A program made the position numbers and the translations under genes. From Nitrospirota bacterium (GTDB taxonomy: Bacteria > Nitrospirota > Thermodesulfovibrionia > Thermodesulfovibrionales > Dissulfurispiraceae): a DNA stretch of 64,000 bases. The notes below the pieces were generated by a model. The model was not told where the DNA came from and searched no databases. It saw nothing but the letters and a program-made list of their open reading frames with translations. The stretch is taken from contig CAWBMP010000003.1 of assembly GCA_963790025.1 (NCBI GenBank), forward strand, positions 32,001 through 96,000, written 5' to 3'. This document shows positions 1-34,021 of the stretch, in pieces. The stretch's first letter is position 1, and every line of letters starts with the position of its first letter.

Positions 1-1402
1 CCTGGCGGCTTCGATTACCTTTTGCAATCATTATCATAGAACCGCCAAGAGACTGCAGGAGATCGACATAGGAATCCATACGTCCGGCAGTAGTTGGACC
101 AAGAGAACCGGATGGCTTGCCAGGCGGAGTCTTGGCCGGACCGGCGTAATAAACAGGGTGTTTTTTCAGGTATTCGGGGATACCCTCTCCTTTGTCGATC
201 CGCTCTCTGAACCTAGCATGGGCGATGTCCCTCGCAACGACAAGTGTGCCGGTCAGGGACAATTGAGTTGTGACGGGAAACTTTGAGAGTTCAGTCAGCA
301 CCTGTCCCATAGGCCTGTTCAGGTCAACCTTCACCACCCCTTGCTTGTGCGTGGCGCGGTATTTAGCAGGGACCAGTCGGCCCGGCTTGCGCTCCAGTGC
401 TTCCAGCCATATACCGGATCTGTCGATTTTTGCCTTTATGTTACGGTCTGCGGAACAGGAGACTCCCATCCCGATCGGGCATGATGCGCCGTGACGCGGC
501 AGTCGGATAACACGCACATCAAGGGCAAAGTACTTGCCTCCGAATTGGGCCCCATAGCCACACTTATAGGCAGCATCCAGTATTTTCTTCTCCAGTTCGA
601 CGTCACGGAATGCATGGCCCGATTTATTCCCTTCAGTAGGAAGGTCGTCCAGGTATTTGGTGGTGGCCAGTTTAACGGTCTTCAAACATGCCTCCGCAGA
701 ACTTCCGCCAATAACAAAAGCCAGGTGGTATGGAGGACAGGCGGCGGTCCCAAGAGTCTTCATCTTTTCGATGAGGAACTTCTCAAGAACCGGAGGGTTC
801 AGGAGGGCTTTTGTCTCCTGATAAAGAGCGGTTTTATTGGCCGAGCCGCCGCCTTTGGCAACAAACAGGAATTTATATTCCATGCCTTCAGTTGCATGCA
901 GGTCGATCTGTGCCGGCAGGTTGCATCCGGAGTTGACCTCGTCATACATGTTTAAGGCGACTGTCTGCGAATAGCGGAGGTTCTCCCCGATGTATGTCTT
1001 GCGTATTCCTTCTGACAGGTATTCTTCATCGTTCACGCCGGTCCAGACCTGCTGTCCCTTCTTTCCGTAAACGGTAGCCGTACCGGTATCCTGACAAAGA
1101 GGCAGCTCAAAACCGGCAGCCACTTCTGCATTGCGCAGCATGGCGACAGCAACACCCCGGTCGTTGTCCGACGCCTCGGGGTCCGACAATATTGCGGCCA
1201 TCTGCTCAAGGTGGGCCGGGCGAAGCAGGAACGATACGTCCCGCATGGCCTGGTTTGCAAGAAAGGTAAGTGCTTCCGGCTCTATAACCAATACTTCTTT
1301 GCCTTTGATGGTTGCCAAAGAAACATACTCTTTCGTAAGGAGCCGGTACTTTGTCGAATCCGGCCCTAAGGGAAAGAGTTCATAATCATTTTTCCCCTTC
1401 AT
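1..1402 (-). CDS. fumA: Class I (Fe-S) fumarate hydratase, FumA/FumB type; 3' end lies beyond the left window edge
   Basis: Hand translation from ATG 1402 ([27 protein letters not shown]...) shows [17 protein letters not shown] and [10 protein letters not shown]. It is absent from the ORF track, consistent with the stop lying outside the window. Confidence 0.9.
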
Positions 1403-1448
1403 AATCCTCTCCCGTTACCCTCCCATTTTTATTATAATAATATAAATT

Positions 1449-2636
1449 ATGAGATATTATCTTGCAAACAATTTTGTCCTCAAGCGGCTTGAGACCCCGG
1501 CCATTTACGATATCAAGGAAGACGAATTGTATGAACTCGACGAAACTGCCTTTGAATTTTTGAACAAGTGCTCAGCGACTGAAGGCTGCAACGGCGATGA
1601 CGCTGACAGGGAATTTATCGGGTACTGTCTTTCAGAAGGAATATTGTCGGAAGCGCCCGTTTCTATCCTCAGGTCCCGTCCTGGATTTTTGGGAGGCGAT
1701 TTGCCGGCACCTTCGCTGCGGTATCTTGAATTGCAAATTACAGACAGATGCAATCTTGAGTGCAAACATTGTTATATTGATCGGCCCGGATCAAACGAAC
1801 TCCCGGCAGAAACAATAATGGGGATTCTGGATGAATTTGAGTTGATGCAGGGATTGCGTCTGATGATTTCCGGCGGGGAGCCTGTGGTGCACCGCGATTT
1901 CAGGGCAATAAATGCAATGCTGCCGAAGTATGGATTCAGGAAAATATTGTTTACAAATGGCCTTCTGCTCGGTAGAGAAGTGTTGGAATGTCTTCATGTT
2001 GATGAAATACAGTTCAGTGTCGACGGCATGGAGCGCGGACACGATGCCCTGAGGGGAAGTGGAACTTATAAAAAAGTAATTCGCGCCATCGGGACTGCGC
2101 TGGGTTCGGGCATGGATGTATCGGTAGCGACCATGATTCACCGTGCGAATGTCGCTGAATTTGCTGAGATGGAAGAGTTTTTTAAAAGTATGGGGATCAG
2201 GGACTGGACTGTTGATGTTCCAAGCCCTGCCGGTCGCTTTAAACACAATACGCTCTTTCATATACGGCCCGATATGGCAGGGCAGTACCTCAATTACGGT
2301 TTCGGCGGCGGCGGCTTTCACGGCGGCGGCGAAGGGTATGGCTGCGGGCATCATCTTTTGTCCGTGCTCGCTAATGGAACAGTTGCCAAGTGCGCTTTTT
2401 ATACCCATGCTCCACTCGGCAAAGTCAGTGACGGACTGCTAAAGTGCCGGGCCAGGCTGAAGCCGGTGAAGCTGGAGGCATTGGAATGTTGCGGGGCCGC
2501 TTGCGCGGTTATTGATTCATGCAGGGGAGGGTGCAGATACCGGGCCTCACTTACCGCCGGAAAAAGTGAATGGGGAGAAAATAAAAGGGATATTTACAAA
2601 TGTTTTGCCTATGGTATACTAAAAGCCGAGAGTTAA
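1449..2636 (+). CDS. Radical SAM/SPASM protein with an N-terminal PqqD/RRE-like domain; probable peptide maturase
   Basis: CNLECKHC (CxxxCxxC) and SGGEP motifs; C-terminal SPASM Cys pattern (GCG..VAKC..C..C..CRGGC..C); N-terminal ~70 aa (IYDIKEDELYELDETAFEFLNKC...EFIGYCLSEGIL) resembles an RRE. Confidence 0.88.
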   Translation: MRYYLANNFVLKRLETPAIYDIKEDELYELDETAFEFLNKCSATEGCNGDDADREFIGYCLSEGILSEAPVSILRSRPGFLGGDLPAPSLRYLELQITDRCNLECKHCYIDRPGSNELPAETIMGILDEFELMQGLRLMISGGEPVVHRDFRAINAMLPKYGFRKILFTNGLLLGREVLECLHVDEIQFSVDGMERGHDALRGSGTYKKVIRAIGTALGSGMDVSVATMIHRANVAEFAEMEEFFKSMGIRDWTVDVPSPAGRFKHNTLFHIRPDMAGQYLNYGFGGGGFHGGGEGYGCGHHLLSVLANGTVAKCAFYTHAPLGKVSDGLLKCRARLKPVKLEALECCGAACAVIDSCRGGCRYRASLTAGKSEWGENKRDIYKCFAYGILKAES

Positions 2637-2738
2637 GAGCTTAGAGACCGGAGCTAAAAACCAGGGAGCAGTAAGCCATTTTTTTGCTCTTAGCCGTTGG
2701 GCCTGGACTCTTAGCTATCTTTGGAGGAGGTGTTTGGA

Positions 2739-2801
2739 ATGGTGATCAGGAAGGTCGTAAAAAAAACAGCAACTACATGTAAGTGTAAGGGTTCCTGTTA
2801 G
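2739..2801 (+). CDS. 20-aa Cys-rich peptide MVIRKVVKKTATTCKCKGSC; putative RiPP precursor
   Basis: Strong SD GGAGGAGGT at 2723-2731, ATG 2739, TAG 2799-2801; basic N-terminal half and CxCxxxC C-terminus; 102 bp downstream of the rSAM gene. Confidence 0.7.
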   Translation: MVIRKVVKKTATTCKCKGSC

Positions 2802-2814
2802 GTATCAATTCATC

Positions 2815-2861
2815 AAAGTATCAGAGTAAATAAAGCTTCATAGTATTTACTCTGACACTTT
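2815..2861. repeat. 18-bp inverted repeat (hairpin) downstream of the peptide gene
   Basis: AAAGTATCAGAGTAAATA ... TATTTACTCTGACACTTT, one mismatch. Confidence 0.75.
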
Positions 2862-2887
2862 GAACTTTTTTGTGGATTTCATGGGTA

Positions 2888-2920
2888 GGGGGGCGGTGTA
2901 CTCAGCCCCCCGTTTATTTT
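2888..2920 (+). terminator. Probable intrinsic terminator
   Basis: GGGGGGC/GCCCCCC stem followed by GTTTATTTT. Confidence 0.55.
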
Positions 2921-2964
2921 GTCGAACCCTTTGTATTTTAAAGATCAGTGTGCCATAATAAAAA

Positions 2965-4716
2965 ATGGATTTTAATAAGGCGTTTTTTTTAGTTCTCGTC
3001 ATTTTAATATTCGGCAGCGCATCATGCGCTCCTTTACAAAAAGAGGCCGGCCCGGTTAAAGAGCCTTCAGTAGAAGTCTTGCGCGTAGACACCGAGAAAG
3101 CGGATTTGGAATACCTGCTCGGCTATGAAGAGGAAATAGATGGAAACTGGGGGGAGGCCCTGCATCATTACAGCGAAGCTCTCAAGCTGGATCCTTCCTC
3201 TACCTACTTAAAGACAGAAATAGGCTCAATGCTTATGAAACTCGGGAAATATGCCGAAGCGTCTTCGATGCTGGAACAGGTTATCAAGGTATCACCAGAT
3301 TATGTCCCCGCCCTTATGCTGCTCGGTGATTTGTATAATGCTCAGAAGAGAGTTGATGAAGCGATAGTCATTTATGATAAAGTGGTGAGGATATCGCCTG
3401 ATAAGGACAATGCGCGCCTGTTCCTGGGAGTACTCTACCTGTCCAAAGGAGAGGCACAAAAAGCTGAAGACATTCTTAATAACATAATTAACAACGATCC
3501 CGAAAATATCATGGCCCTCTACTATCTCGGCACAATCAGCCTTGAGAGAAAAGATTTTGGTAAAGCGGAGAATTTTTTTAAAAGGGTCATAGAGCTTAGG
3601 CCGTCCTTCGATGCTGCTTATTTGAGCCTTGGACTTGCCAGTGAAATAAGGAACGATACAAAGTCTGCCGAAGAATACTACAAGAAAGCACTCGAAGTTA
3701 ATCCCCATAATCCATTCGCAAGCGAAAGACTCACGCAACTTTATCTGACCGAAAGGTCATATGAAAAAGCCATTAAGGAACTCGAACGTGTATTGACAGA
3801 GGCCCCCACAAATGTGGATATTCATCACCGGCTCGGGTTGCTTTATCTTCAGGAAAAACAATATGAACGGGCGCTCTCCGAGTTCAGGATTGTCCTTGAG
3901 GCAAGGCCGGCCGATATAACAGTCAGATATTATGTCGTGGTAACACTCGATGAAATGAACAGGCTGGATGAGGCAATCGCTGAGCTTAAGAAAATTCTTG
4001 CTATTGATCCGAAGAACGTAAATGCGTTTATGACGCTCGGAGCAATCTACTCTAAGCAGAACAATTCCCCGGAGGCAGTAAAGATATACCAGGAAGCGCT
4101 TAGTTTTGAAAAGGGCAAACCGGAAATTTATGTTTATCTCGGTTCCACATACGTGCAGATGAAAGAATACGCGAAGTCTGAAGAAGTTTTGACGGACGGC
4201 CTCAAGCTCTTCCCCAATAACGATGAGTTGCTTTTCAATATGGCCATACTTTATGAAAAAACCGGAAAATTCGAGGATATGGTCAGGACCCTGAAACGCA
4301 CTATCGAATTGAATCCAAAAAATGCGGAGGCGTTGAATTACCTGGGCTATAGTTATGCTGATAAGGGCATCAATCTTAAAGAAGCCTTGTCGCTTGTCAA
4401 AAAGGCGCTGGAACTGAAGCCGGACAGCGGTTTCATAATGGACAGCCTGGGATGGATATATTTCAAACAGGGACGGCTGGAAGAAGCACTGAAAACCCAG
4501 ATCACGGCCGTAAATCTTGTCAATGACGACCCTGTCTTGCGTGAGCATCTTGGCGATATCTATGCAGCTATGGGCAAGAATGACGAAGCCCTCGACGCCT
4601 GGAATGCTGCTCTCCGTTTTCAGGAAAAAGAGGAGGGGTTAAAGGAGCGCGTTGAGGGGAAGATAAAACAGCTAGGGGCCAAGAGCCAAGAGCCAAGAGC
4701 GAAAGTCAAAGAATAG
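2965..4716 (+). CDS. Tetratricopeptide-repeat lipoprotein
   Basis: Lipobox-like GSASC, many TPR repeats, C-terminal NYLGYSYAD..DSLGWIYFKQG..HLGD segment typical of the TPR gene upstream of ispE. Confidence 0.88.
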   Translation: MDFNKAFFLVLVILIFGSASCAPLQKEAGPVKEPSVEVLRVDTEKADLEYLLGYEEEIDGNWGEALHHYSEALKLDPSSTYLKTEIGSMLMKLGKYAEASSMLEQVIKVSPDYVPALMLLGDLYNAQKRVDEAIVIYDKVVRISPDKDNARLFLGVLYLSKGEAQKAEDILNNIINNDPENIMALYYLGTISLERKDFGKAENFFKRVIELRPSFDAAYLSLGLASEIRNDTKSAEEYYKKALEVNPHNPFASERLTQLYLTERSYEKAIKELERVLTEAPTNVDIHHRLGLLYLQEKQYERALSEFRIVLEARPADITVRYYVVVTLDEMNRLDEAIAELKKILAIDPKNVNAFMTLGAIYSKQNNSPEAVKIYQEALSFEKGKPEIYVYLGSTYVQMKEYAKSEEVLTDGLKLFPNNDELLFNMAILYEKTGKFEDMVRTLKRTIELNPKNAEALNYLGYSYADKGINLKEALSLVKKALELKPDSGFIMDSLGWIYFKQGRLEEALKTQITAVNLVNDDPVLREHLGDIYAAMGKNDEALDAWNAALRFQEKEEGLKERVEGKIKQLGAKSQEPRAKVKE

Positions 4717-5657: not shown

Positions 5658-5731
5658 ATGAGTTGATGGGTGAATGGGTAAAAAAAACTAAGAACTCATA
5701 TGCCCATATACTCATTTACTCATATACTTTT

Positions 5732-5803
5732 TGGGGCGTAGACAAGCGGCAAGTCAGCAGATTTTGGATCTGCCATTCCCAGGTTCGAATCCTGGCGCCC
5801 CAG
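5732..5803 (+). tRNA. tRNA-Gln(TTG), CCA not encoded
   Basis: TGGGGCG/CGCCCCA acceptor stem, GCAGA-TTTTGGA-TCTGC anticodon arm, GGTTCGAATCC T-loop; conserved ispE-tRNA-Gln-prs synteny. Confidence 0.97.
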
Positions 5804-5940
5804 TCCTTATAAAAGTAAAAAGTGAGAAGTAAAAAGTAAAAATGGATTTATGGGCTGCGCGAGATGTGTTATATTATTCTTTATACATAATGAATGAGGC
5901 TATTTGACTTTTAACTTTTTACTTCTTTTTTGGAGGGGAA

Positions 5941-16447: not shown

Positions 16448-16885
16448 CGGGCAGTCCTCCTGTAATATTTATTGCAACCCAGCCATCAAAGAATAGCGGC
16501 CCGATTGCATAAAACTACCAGGGGAAGATATGGATAGCAGTGGCGCGGAAAATTAAAAACTGCGCGGGATCCCCAAAAAGTTTGTGGATCTTTGGGGCCA
16601 CGTAGTTACAAGAGTCAGGACGTGATTATTACGCAATGCATTGCATGTTCAATACATAGAAATGAACACATCTGTGTATTGTAAACCCTGTCACACTCGT
16701 ATGAGAGCATCCTGACTCCTTTATCTTCAAAACATCAATGGCGCTATCCAAACGTCCCCATTAGTAATTACCACCACAGGATACGTCGGTGACCCCGGAA
16801 AGTCTGCTTTTTGTGGTCGCCCATTCAGTACAGACTAAGAAGTATTCCATGCTGGTAATTACTAATGTACAAAATCAGCTATATA

Positions 16886-17065
16886 AAACCCACCCTGTCG
16901 TGTAGGCTGAGATTAGATCCCTCTCCTTAAAAAGTGGGTGCCTTGAAAGTAGCTTAGGCTCTCTCCGCCATGGAAGATATGCACACCGTTTACTTTACGT
17001 CAGCTCCCGAAAGATCTAATTTGCGAGATCAACATTCTCCCCTAATCACTGAACAGGGCAGGTAT
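16886..17065 (-). ncRNA. ssrS: 6S RNA
   Basis: On the minus strand, 5' CCTGCCCTGTTCAGTG pairs with 3' CACGACAGGGTGGG; internal GGGAGC, CGGTGTGCA, GCCT and GGCACCCAC segments; ~180 nt; upstream of rny. Confidence 0.85.
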
Positions 17066-17157
17066 ATAATCCCTCTTAGTTATTAAAGCAGAAAATACAG
17101 TATATAAGCAACTAAAATCGTAGGCAGTACGCCTTATATGCTTGAATAAGGGGGAAC

Positions 17158-33574: not shown

Positions 33575-33672
33575 AGCTTAGTAAATGAGAATAATTATAT
33601 ATTTTCCATCTGTAGCAGTATTGATTTAAAGGCAAGGTTGACAAAACTTATCCTTAAAGTTTATAAAAGACG

Positions 33673-33884
33673 ATCTCAGGTGCCGTAAGGATTAATAGGG
33701 AATCCCGTGAGGCGGTAATGCCGATTCGGGAGCGGGCCCGCCGCTGTAACCGGGGACGAAAGCCGACTGAGCCACTGGAGTGTAAACTCTGGGAAGGCCG
33801 GCAAGTAGGTGGGGGTCCCCAGAAAGTCACAGACTTTTTGGGGTACCGTTGATAATCCGGGAGCCAGAAGACCTACCTGTGAGA
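33673..33884 (+). promoter_or_regulatory. Cobalamin (AdoCbl) riboswitch
   Basis: AGGTGCC, AATAGGGAA, GCCCGCCGCTGTAA, GCCACTG, GGGAAGGC, B12 box GAGCCAGAAGACCTACCT; upstream TTGACA (33638) and TATAAA (33662); precedes cbiM. Confidence 0.92.
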
Positions 33885-34021
33885 CTCAGTGATATGTTGC
33901 TGATGACGGGAGCTCATTCAAGATAACCTATCGAATATCCCCCGTTTTCCATGCAACATCTCACCTATTAACCACTCCTTGCCGTGGCTGGAAGGAAAGA
34001 GGATGAAGTGAATCAGGGTGC

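Follow-up and report, generated by a model that had tools for sequence, protein, structure and literature searches.

A candidate two-gene RiPP module in Nitrospirota: a 20-residue cysteine-rich peptide and a radical SAM/SPASM enzyme

In a stretch of 64,000 nucleotides from a Nitrospirota genome (hereafter the window; assembly GCA_963790025.1, contig CAWBMP010000003.1, positions 32,001 to 96,000), a gene for a radical SAM enzyme is followed by a gene of only 20 codons. We read the two as a self-contained, SCIFF-like RiPP module, i.e. a 20-residue precursor with its dedicated radical SAM/SPASM maturase, and give this reading a probability of roughly 55%. Since the two genes lie side by side in many related Nitrospirota genomes, they probably encode enzyme and substrate. 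The pair is a new, unnamed family within the well-known class of RiPP maturases; precursor and maturase are now defined as a family that annotation pipelines would otherwise miss, the peptide gene being below the length that such pipelines call.

The enzyme gene (P0001) occupies positions 1449 to 2636 on the forward strand and encodes 395 amino acids, as had been called in the original prediction. The three-domain layout of RRE, radical SAM and SPASM that was proposed there is supported as well, with the RRE as its least certain part, judging by the structural model, its fold matches, the matches of the N-terminal domain and the profile TIGR04085. The radical SAM core is recognized by PF04055 over residues 96-244 (62.3 bits, cutoff 29.5). 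Within this match lies the CxxxCxxC motif for the SAM-binding [4Fe-4S] cluster (C101, C105 and C108; 1749 to 1772, forward strand), whose three cysteines are invariant in all 62 aligned relatives of alignment A2. We found more than 2400 homologs of the enzyme; every organism named in the source belongs to the Nitrospirota, and the source annotation reads just "radical SAM protein". More distant relatives have identities of 35-47%, and some of them carry an additional Cys-rich N-terminal domain. The AF2 model of the full-length enzyme has a pLDDT of 92.7 and a pTM of 0.92, and a fold search of the PDB with this model returned SkfB, SuiB and CteB as the best matches (E 5e-16 to 9e-14). According to the model, these are the nearest solved structures, and all three are peptide (RiPP) maturases. 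The alignments to the RRE-containing enzymes SuiB and CteB extend over 437-466 columns; other fold neighbours are anSME, PqqE and the epimerase EpeE. A search of the ESM Atlas with the enzyme returned generic radical SAM clusters alone.

The predicted SPASM domain (2343 to 2603, forward strand) carries seven conserved cysteines (C299, C315, C347, C352, C358, C362 and C385), and in alignment A2 the conservation of each is complete or no lower than 90%. TIGR04085 matches residues 299-374 with 27.8 bits, 0.8 bit over the cutoff of 27 (E 2.6e-6), and the match spans profile positions 1-86 of 93; the Pfam SPASM model PF13186 does not match the enzyme. It is thus the TIGR04085 score together with the seven cysteines that bears out the SPASM domain claimed earlier. 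The spacing in the enzyme is Cx4Cx5Cx3C, while more distant relatives have the canonical Cx2Cx5Cx3C. Assigned by motif spacing, the seven cysteines fit the ligand scheme that the accessible text of PMC10177961 gives for CteB, so that three of them would belong to auxiliary cluster 1 and four to cluster 2; in the same text, the crosslinking cysteine is bound to cluster 1 in PapB and Tte1186. Immediately before the first SPASM cysteine, and including it, runs a Gly-rich loop, GFGGGGFHGGGEGYGCG (residues 284-300; 2298 to 2348, forward strand). This loop had been singled out as odd. It is indeed there, and it is a conserved signature of the family with the consensus YGFGGGLHGGGEGYACG. G284, H291, G296, C299 and G300 are invariant in alignment A1, and the window's loop contains one Gly more than the loops in the 15 other rows of that alignment. 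The confidence of the model is reduced at the loop (block means 81 and 85).

The N-terminal part of the enzyme (residues ~1-75; 1449 to 1673, forward strand) is predicted to adopt an RRE-like, i.e. PqqD-like winged-helix, fold. Residues 1-88, modelled separately (pLDDT 83.7), form strands at 2-5, 9-13, 17-21 and 26-29, followed by helices at 32-41 and 51-62. RRE domains or RRE-containing RiPP enzymes account for 18 of the 19 first-listed PDB matches of this isolated domain; the matches include TbiB1, LynD, SuiB, the lasso-peptide B1 protein 6jx3, CteB, PbtF, ThcOx, MccB and TruD, with PqqD and TigE further down the list. The individual matches are weak (E 0.009-1.6, TM 0.42-0.59), and sequence HMMs detected no RRE in the N-terminus. 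Hence, the RRE-like N-terminus that had been claimed is suggested by the modelled fold, but not by sequence profiles. The DELYELD motif of this domain is invariant in alignment A1.

The small ORF is a real gene, far beyond chance. In the window it lies at 2739 to 2801 on the forward strand and encodes the 20 residues MVIRKVVKKTATTCKCKGSC, exactly the peptide that had been picked out from the sequence. Conservation of such an ORF beside homologs of the enzyme had been set beforehand as a test, and it was found at 65 of 75 informative loci (those whose sequence continues for more than 100 nt past the enzyme gene), on the same strand and just downstream, with selection on the protein visible at the codon level. 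Together with the window this gives 66 copies. The gap between the two genes ranges from 1 to 312 nt (median 48) and is at most 120 nt in 62 of the 66. These copies are 66 distinct DNA sequences that encode 53 distinct peptides, and the length is invariably 20 codons. Start codons are ATG (63 copies), GTG (2) and TTG (1), and TAA, TAG and TGA all occur as stops. Within the DNA examined, the peptide gene is seen solely beside this enzyme gene. At the ten remaining informative loci, the enzyme gene has no such ORF in the 5-9 kb examined; in a quick tree of the enzyme, these loci fall into at least four groups.

The peptide can be divided into a basic, leader-like part (residues 1-9; consensus M-x-I-[K/R]-K-[V/I]-S-[K/R]-K), a variable stretch (10-12) and an invariant core (13-20; TCKCK[G/S]SC), and this pattern of conservation agrees with the split into leader and core proposed from the single sequence. 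The core octapeptide is invariant although the enzyme has diverged to ~45% identity. Three cysteines are present in 65 of the 66 copies, and the one exception has a fourth at the variable position 10; every copy ends precisely at Cys20. Over codons 13-20 the entropy is 0.93, 0.0 and 8.34 bits at the first, second and third codon position, respectively. The variation is therefore nearly all synonymous, so that selection acts on the amino-acid sequence rather than on the RNA or on mere translation. In the leader, Lys and Arg replace each other freely (32 K and 31 R at position 4, 53 and 12 at position 8, 61 and 5 at position 9), whereas K15 and K17 are Arg in none of the 66 copies, even though the search pattern permitted Arg; this contrast suggests that both Lys side chains matter chemically. 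We discarded an alternative TTG start at 2721, which would give 26 residues: the residues that it would add lack conservation, and the Shine-Dalgarno site precedes the ATG at all loci. The basic N-terminus resembles the start of the ribosomal protein bL36, a likeness that we dropped because no Pfam model matches the peptide at E up to 1; nor does any NCBIfam model at this threshold.

In the window, the pair is surrounded by genes for fumarate hydratase, a TPR protein, ispE, prs, L25 and pth. Across 80 loci, the downstream genes include the TPR gene (45 loci), ispE (36) and prs (28), and elsewhere the neighbours are unrelated (GH3, MFS, HDOD, oxoacid:ferredoxin oxidoreductase, rubrerythrin, SOD, glycogen phosphorylase). 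The enzyme and peptide genes are the sole conserved pair, while other neighbours vary. No protease, exporter, immunity or tailoring genes were found at the examined loci, so the absence of an adjacent protease or exporter, noted earlier for the window, extends to its relatives. Identity of the enzyme to the window's copy correlates with that of ispE (Spearman rho 0.87, n=36) and with that of the TPR gene (rho 0.87, n=43), where all distances are to one reference, the window, and the points are not independent. Judging from these sequence comparisons, the module appears to be passed on vertically, together with core genes, within the Thermodesulfovibrionales/Dissulfurispiraceae part of the Nitrospirota. 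Among the homologs, P0050 bears the name of the cultured Dissulfurispira thermophila, and the gene pair is present at L045, a locus whose assignment is Thermodesulfovibrio yellowstonii.

Neither NCBIfam nor Pfam provides a model that names the enzyme family, as the original prediction had supposed; the best NCBIfam score is that of WgkB (83.9 bits, cutoff 650), and five more distant relatives of the enzyme likewise reach no NCBIfam cutoff. Clustering with the cofactor enzymes of the Ahb/NirJ type had been named as a result that would speak against the proposal. It was not seen: NirJ, AhbC and AhbD score 77 (cutoff 515.45), 71.6 (650) and 71 bits (500), all on residues ~96-266 of the core only. 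Membership in the families of MftC (69.1 bits, cutoff 265), PqqE (50.9, cutoff 381) and anSME (far below its cutoff) was rejected in the same way, as was that of the PapB-type ranthipeptide maturases, whose model scores the C-terminal part of the enzyme at 10.8 bits (cutoff 340). The peptide is not of the SCIFF precursor type (~45 residues, six Cys), as it always has 20 residues and, in 65 of 66 copies, three Cys. A literature search found no description of the gene family; the accessible text of two BGC surveys covers ranthipeptides and Nitrospirota in general counts only, and their supplements could list such clusters.

Among known systems, the closest parallel is drawn to the SCIFF ranthipeptides of Clostridia (CteA/CteB, Tte1186a/Tte1186), which likewise consist of two genes, one for a Cys-rich short precursor and one for an RRE-rSAM-SPASM enzyme. 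Both SCIFF and the present module are spread over a whole lineage rather than sporadically, and for SCIFF the accessible text of PMC8326336 takes this spread as an argument against an antimicrobial role. In the fold search CteB ranks near the top (E ~8e-14), and its sequence match covers residues 57-361 of the enzyme. However, the identity is only ~19-20%, the SCIFF maturases have Cx2C where Cx4C is found here, the two precursors differ in length and number of cysteines and have no sequence relationship, and the SCIFF hosts are Bacillota, not Nitrospirota. SkfB, the sactisynthase of the sporulation killing factor (SkfA), uses radical SAM chemistry to install a Cys thioether in a short peptide. 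It is the best match both in sequence among solved structures (E 4e-21) and in fold (E 4.8e-16, TM 0.59), but the sequence match is confined to residues 90-237, the radical SAM core. Instead of a full SPASM domain, SkfB carries a twitch-type domain with a [2Fe-2S] cluster. The skf operon includes export, immunity and protease genes, which are absent at the present loci.

SuiB shares the RRE-rSAM-SPASM layout and occupies ranks 2-6 of the fold search (TM up to 0.70, ~460 alignment columns), but is just 15-16% identical to the enzyme. In the streptide made from SuiA, a Lys side chain is the partner in a Lys-Trp crosslink, which recalls the invariant K15 and K17; since the present peptide contains no Trp or other aromatic residue, a C-C bond of the streptide type is impossible here. 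The MftA/MftC and PqqA/PqqE systems resemble the pair in their very short ribosomal precursors, an rSAM-SPASM enzyme and PqqD-type recognition, and their products act inside the cell rather than as antibiotics. PQQ and mycofactocin are both typically made from very short precursors, and the modified residues of MftA are at its extreme C-terminus, as is the invariant core of the present peptide. In contrast to the present enzyme, where the RRE-like domain is fused, both systems encode the RRE separately, and none of their accessory genes occurs near the pair.

For a SCIFF-like module, the following course of events can be proposed. The RRE-like domain would dock the basic N-terminal part of the peptide and thereby put the octapeptide T-C-K-C-K-[G/S]-S-C into the active site. 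There, a 5'-deoxyadenosyl radical derived from SAM would take a hydrogen from an acceptor residue, and a Cys thiolate, probably bound to the auxiliary SPASM cluster with three Cys ligands, would close an intramolecular crosslink. The most likely product would contain one to three Cys-derived thioether bridges of the sactionine or ranthionine type to Thr13, Lys15, Lys17 or Ser19; a bridge Thr13-x-x-Cys16 would be one example, by analogy with the NxxC type. Because the fold neighbours include SuiB, which forms a C-C bond, as well as anSME, PqqE and EpeE, a thioether is the likeliest of several chemistries; we infer this, as well as leader binding and the biological role, from the comparisons above. 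The lack of protease, exporter and tailoring genes and the apparent vertical inheritance bring the module closer to the clostridial SCIFF than to a bacteriocin cluster. Moreover, the invariant core, the linkage to core genes and the missing export and immunity genes point to a physiological, non-antibiotic function, the same question that SCIFF poses in Clostridia; a housekeeping or intracellular role may be proposed from gene context alone.

Several points count against the preferred reading: the ten informative loci without the small ORF, the weak matches of the RRE-like domain, the narrow margin of the SPASM score, and the leader, which with its ~9-12 residues is short for recognition by an RRE. 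To our knowledge, a precursor of 20 residues with a leader of ~9 looks very small for an enzyme in which the RRE is fused to a radical SAM domain, and the pair could therefore reveal the minimal requirements of RRE recognition. The pair is also small enough for co-expression, so that its chemistry is testable at once.

A distinctly less probable explanation, though the best placed of the rivals, is that the peptide serves as scaffold for a small cofactor, redox or metal-binding molecule, as do PqqA in the case of PQQ and MftA in that of mycofactocin. The radical SAM enzyme would then commit the peptide to the pathway by acting first, on its C-terminal residues, and housekeeping peptidases encoded elsewhere would release the product. 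Such a role would suit a peptide that ends exactly at Cys20 with an octapeptide invariant in 66 of 66 copies, a lineage-wide module whose divergence tracks that of its core neighbours, and the absence of exporter and immunity genes; besides, PqqE is among the fold neighbours, and the MftC and PqqE models match at the level of the core. Both models nevertheless stay far below their cutoffs, the top fold matches are crosslinking maturases and not PqqE, and there is no conserved nearby peptidase, oxidase, glycosyltransferase or separate PqqD/MftB. It is a tentative idea, then, that the octapeptide ending in Cys20 is the raw material of a new peptide-derived cofactor or of a metal- or sulfur-handling prosthetic peptide. 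If it were true, the pair would be a minimal two-gene pathway and a housekeeping component of sulfate-reducing and sulfur-disproportionating Nitrospirota, and a third system of the PQQ/mycofactocin type rather than a secreted natural product.

Somewhat more doubtful still is the view that the 20-residue product is itself a functional micro-protein. With its three Cys it might, for instance, be a ligand for a metal or an Fe-S cluster, or it might regulate the radical SAM enzyme or join it as a small subunit; the enzyme would then act on something else. The ten of 75 loci that retain the enzyme without an adjacent peptide gene agree with this view, the three invariant cysteines in CxCxxxC could bind a metal, and the peptide as substrate of the enzyme is a prediction. 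Yet the enzyme has the layout of peptide maturases, the invariance of Thr13, Lys15, Lys17 and Ser19 exceeds the needs of a simple metal site, and the confinement of the peptide gene, within the DNA examined, to the side of this enzyme gene also argues against an independent protein.

Concerning expression, the ORF is preceded by the Shine-Dalgarno sequence GGAGGAGG; the site GGAGGAGGT, read from the sequence at 2723 to 2731 (forward strand), lies 8 nt before the ATG. An SD-like site at -18 to -4 is present in 66 of 66 copies, in line with the strong SD described at the outset. A promoter scan yielded a single good -35/-10 match, which overlaps the last part of the enzyme gene (2593-2620); as the region has four sites compared with an expected 2.5 +/- 1.7, this match is no evidence of a separate promoter. 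The hairpins that had been reported on both sides of the ORF fared differently. The region 2637-2738 upstream folds like shuffled sequence (z = +0.16, 114/200 shuffles as good), i.e. at chance level. Downstream, a terminator-like hairpin at 2813-2863 is followed by CUUUUU (2813 to 2870 in total, forward strand), with an MFE of -22.2 kcal/mol and z = -6.26 (0/200 shuffles as good), and in 60 of 66 copies the stop is followed within 120 nt by a terminator-like hairpin with a T-run.

A strong hairpin with a U-run after an ORF is the layout of an attenuator, but that the ORF is a chance ORF or a translated attenuation leader for terminator and downstream genes is highly improbable and effectively refuted already by the conservation data, since it accompanies the enzyme gene whichever gene comes next (TPR follows in only 45 of 80 loci), keeps its 20 codons across 53 peptides from 66 DNA sequences, and varies almost purely synonymously in codons 13-20.

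A hairpin that would sequester the SD before the peptide start (CCCT...AGGG) is present in many single-sequence folds, but covariation gives it no support: in the alignment of 66 sequences, 77.7% of the cells pair compared with 75.8% after shuffling (37/500 as high), and slid controls reach 72-76%. Rfam gave only chance-level matches below gathering threshold on 1300-3100, namely two miRNA families on the downstream hairpin and ylbH. A second terminator-like element, read from the sequence at 2888 to 2920 (forward strand), consists of a stem GGGGGGC ... GCCCCCC followed by GTTTATTTT. This element alone is no more stable than its shuffles (z = -0.46); at the closest loci (L001-L005), a very similar stem of G-rich and C-rich arms with TTTATTTT after it is found downstream of the peptide gene.

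We predict that the window encodes a new RiPP-type precursor/maturase pair, a reading that was originally proposed from the window itself and is well supported computationally by genomic linkage, conservation at the peptide level and the architecture of the enzyme. The pair lies on the forward strand and consists of a gene for a 395-residue radical SAM protein (P0001; 1449-2636) and, after a spacing of 102 nt, an ORF (2739-2801) encoding the peptide MVIRKVVKKTATTCKCKGSC. A Shine-Dalgarno site, GGAGGAGGT (2723-2731), ends 8 nt before the ATG. An alternative start, an in-frame TTG at 2721 giving a 26-residue product, was considered and rejected, because the comparison across loci points to the ATG. 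On the 3' side of the stop codon, a long hairpin (2813-2863; minimum free energy -22.2 kcal/mol) is followed by CUUUUU; its z-score is -6.26, and none of 200 shuffled sequences is as stable. Further on, a GGGGGGC/GCCCCCC stem with GTTTATTTT (2888-2920) can be read from the sequence, also on the forward strand. The original prediction had placed hairpins on both sides of the peptide gene. Its ORF pair, Shine-Dalgarno site and downstream hairpin are borne out, the upstream hairpin excepted: the intergenic stretch 5' of the peptide gene has the stability of its shuffles (z = +0.16; 114 of 200 as good).

In a one-genome-per-species collection, 177 stretches encode a relative of the enzyme, and the best 80 were fetched with their flanks. 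Five of these loci (L024, L038, L040, L060 and L066) are uninformative, with no more than 100 nt of sequence beyond the enzyme gene. At 65 of the remaining 75, an ORF of always exactly 20 codons occurs at the enzyme gene on the same strand, so that the small ORF first seen in the window is indeed conserved beside the homologs of the enzyme; its product follows the pattern M-x-I-[K/R]-K-[V/I]-S-[K/R]-K-x-x-[T/L/M]-T-C-K-C-K-[G/S]-S-C. It is missing at ten loci (L027, L034, L039, L042, L051, L054, L057, L058, L073 and L077), where a looser six-frame pattern has no match in the whole of the fetched DNA. Together with the window, the 66 copies comprise 66 distinct DNA sequences and 53 distinct peptides, begin with ATG (63), GTG (2) or TTG (1), and end with stop codons of all three kinds. 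An SD-like site precedes every copy, and 60 of them have a terminator-like hairpin plus T-run no more than 120 nt downstream; the gap to the enzyme gene ranges from 1 to 312 nt (median 48). Variation in codons 13-20, which encode the octapeptide TCKCK[G/S]SC, is almost purely synonymous, with entropies of 0.93, 0.0 and 8.34 bits at the first, second and third codon positions. The invariance of the cysteines is partly by construction, since the collecting pattern demanded C-[K/R]-C-[K/R]-[G/S/A]-[S/T]-C-stop; Thr13, Lys15, Lys17 and Ser19 were free to vary under this pattern, yet they are constant in all copies. Lys and Arg replace each other freely at positions 4, 8 and 9 of the leader.

In P0001, Pfam recognizes only the radical SAM core (PF04055, 62.3 bits, residues 96-244). 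NCBIfam returns 72 families at E up to 1, all confined to the core and none near its cutoff; the top scores are those of WgkB (83.9 vs 650), TIGR04133 (83.7 vs 425) and NirJ (77 vs 515). When the C-terminal 126 residues are scanned alone, the SPASM model TIGR04085 matches residues 299-374 with 27.8 bits against a cutoff of 27 (E = 2.6e-6); the Pfam SPASM model has no match in this part. In an alignment of 62 sequences, which takes in relatives down to 30% identity, nine cysteines are invariant (C101, C105, C108, C299, C315, C347, C352, C358 and C362) and C385 is at least 90% conserved, hence a radical SAM triad and seven SPASM cysteines. The SPASM spacing is Cx4Cx5Cx3C, the canonical Cx2Cx5Cx3C being found in more distant relatives. 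The Gly-rich loop that had stood out in the window (residues 284-300) proved to be a conserved family signature, leading straight into the first SPASM Cys. Residue 259 (nt 2223-2225) is Ser in the window and Cys, within a DVPC motif, in the alignment consensus; conservation of this Cys does not extend across the family, so that a role as cluster ligand is improbable.

The AlphaFold2 model of P0001 (pLDDT 92.7, pTM 0.92) has its top PDB fold matches exclusively in peptide maturases, i.e. SkfB (E = 4.8e-16), SuiB (E about 1e-14, TM up to 0.70) and CteB (E about 8e-14), followed by BlsE, MoaA, anSME, PqqE and ChlB and, lower down, TigE and EpeE. A family-profile sequence search finds SkfB, in the core only, and CteB over residues 57-361. 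Residues 1-88, modelled alone (pLDDT 83.7), form four strands and then two helices, and 18 of the first 19 PDB matches listed are RiPP recognition elements (RREs) or RRE-containing RiPP enzymes, including TbiB1 with its leader peptide, LynD, SuiB, a lasso-peptide B1 protein, CteB, the PbtF RRE, ThcOx, MccB and TruD; PqqD and TigE rank lower. As the statistics of these matches are weak (E 0.009-1.6, TM 0.42-0.59) and the Pfam and NCBIfam HMMs do not detect the N-terminal domain, we infer an RRE at the level of fold only. In its modelled architecture, P0001 corresponds to the radical SAM peptide maturases that depend on an RRE.

According to the sections of PMC10177961 on CteB and its homologs PapB and Tte1186, auxiliary cluster 1 of CteB has three Cys ligands and cluster 2 four, and in the two homologs the substrate Cys that forms the crosslink coordinates cluster 1. 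The seven SPASM cysteines of P0001 fit this 3 + 4 scheme; judging by their spacing pattern, C299, C315 and C362 would belong to cluster 1, and C347, C352, C358 and C385 to cluster 2. From this fit and the maturase architecture we propose three steps: the RRE would dock the basic N-terminal nine residues of the peptide, the invariant octapeptide would enter the barrel of the enzyme, and at least one Cys thiolate would be joined to a carbon radical on Thr13, Lys15, Lys17 or Ser19. The portion of PMC8326336 on ranthipeptides states that the acceptors described to date have a functional group adjacent to the carbon under attack and that NxxcA links Cys to the residue three positions upstream; because its register is the same, Thr13-x-x-Cys16 is a candidate for a specific crosslink by analogy. 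Docking, octapeptide entry, acceptors and the Thr13/Cys16 register are what we infer, and the peptide may instead undergo other radical chemistry, such as epimerisation, C-terminal decarboxylation or conversion to formylglycine.

The nearest analogue in logic is SCIFF, a Cys-rich precursor with an RRE-rSAM-SPASM enzyme that occurs lineage-wide in Clostridia; its wide distribution is taken as an argument against an antibiotic role in the same portion of PMC8326336. The peptide described here, in contrast, is unrelated to the SCIFF precursor and has less than half its length. Because all membership scores fail, the Nitrospirota module is placed by sequence outside SCIFF and every other named family; the pair constitutes a new family, though one of a known kind. 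Searches of full-text literature gave no description of it. Two metagenomic BGC surveys mention, in their excerpted text, ranthipeptide counts and Nitrospirota separately, and their supplements might list its loci as generic antiSMASH regions. A bench test is worthwhile, given how minimal the system is and that at least one cultured organism carries it.

A protein search that scored 8000 candidates identified 2426 enzyme homologs; the top 120 share 52-100% identity with the query across no less than 94% of its length. Where named, the hosts are all Nitrospirota, Thermodesulfovibrionales, Dissulfurispiraceae or Nitrospirales, and the protein names are generic without exception. Out of 1.84 billion cluster representatives, 84 match at E <= 1e-30. 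Full-length relatives extend down to about 30-35% identity, below which there are generic core matches alone; five relatives across this range reach no NCBIfam cutoff. A sister group (P0124, P0125, P0135, P0139 and P0150; 37-44% identity) has canonical Cx2Cx5Cx3C SPASM spacing and an extra Cys-rich N-terminal domain of about 100-135 residues preceding the RRE-like domain; its two scanned members, P0125 and P0139, match no NCBIfam model at cutoff.

The window pair is flanked by a fumarate hydratase gene in divergent orientation and, on the other side, by the gene of a TPR protein, after which lie ispE, tRNA-Gln (anticodon TTG; 5731-5806, forward strand), prs, L25, pth and pepA. Among the 80 loci, TPR (45), ispE (36) and prs (28) recur 3' of the pair; neighbours in other loci are unrelated (GH3 hydrolase, MFS transporter, HDOD protein, 2-oxoacid:ferredoxin oxidoreductase, rubrerythrin, superoxide dismutase, glycogen phosphorylase). 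Since the neighbours change and recurrent genes for a protease, an ABC exporter or another modifying enzyme are absent around the pair in these loci, the conserved unit is enzyme plus peptide. Across loci, identity to the window is correlated between the enzyme and ispE (rho 0.87, n = 36), TPR (0.87, n = 43) and prs (0.56, n = 28). Such correlations are consistent with vertical inheritance, with the caveat that their points are not independent of one another. A quick enzyme tree places the ten loci that lack the peptide gene in at least four groups, which suggests that this gene was relocated or lost more than once. Two enzymes from Thermodesulfovibrio sp. MAGs (L054, L057), with no adjoining peptide gene, form a long branch (1.1 substitutions per site) of odd amino-acid composition and may be diverged or re-purposed copies. 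The sole locus labelled with another phylum, from a Chloroflexota MAG (L070), has its rSAM-peptide-TPR-ispE-prs genes in the same order, at 51-76% identity, and branches within Nitrospirota in the tree; a mis-binned contig is more likely than gene transfer.

Some loci without TPR-ispE-prs have, shortly after the peptide gene, an opposite-strand gene for rubrerythrin (8 loci; e.g. L065:5630-6244) or Fe/Mn superoxide dismutase (8 loci; e.g. L048:5671-6330), which may hint at an oxidative-stress context or be coincidence. Elsewhere, the window contains a cobalamin riboswitch (33661-33894, forward strand; 98.1 bits, gathering score 31.5) and a 6S RNA (SsrS; 16883-17067, reverse strand; 50.9 bits, gathering score 46.4).
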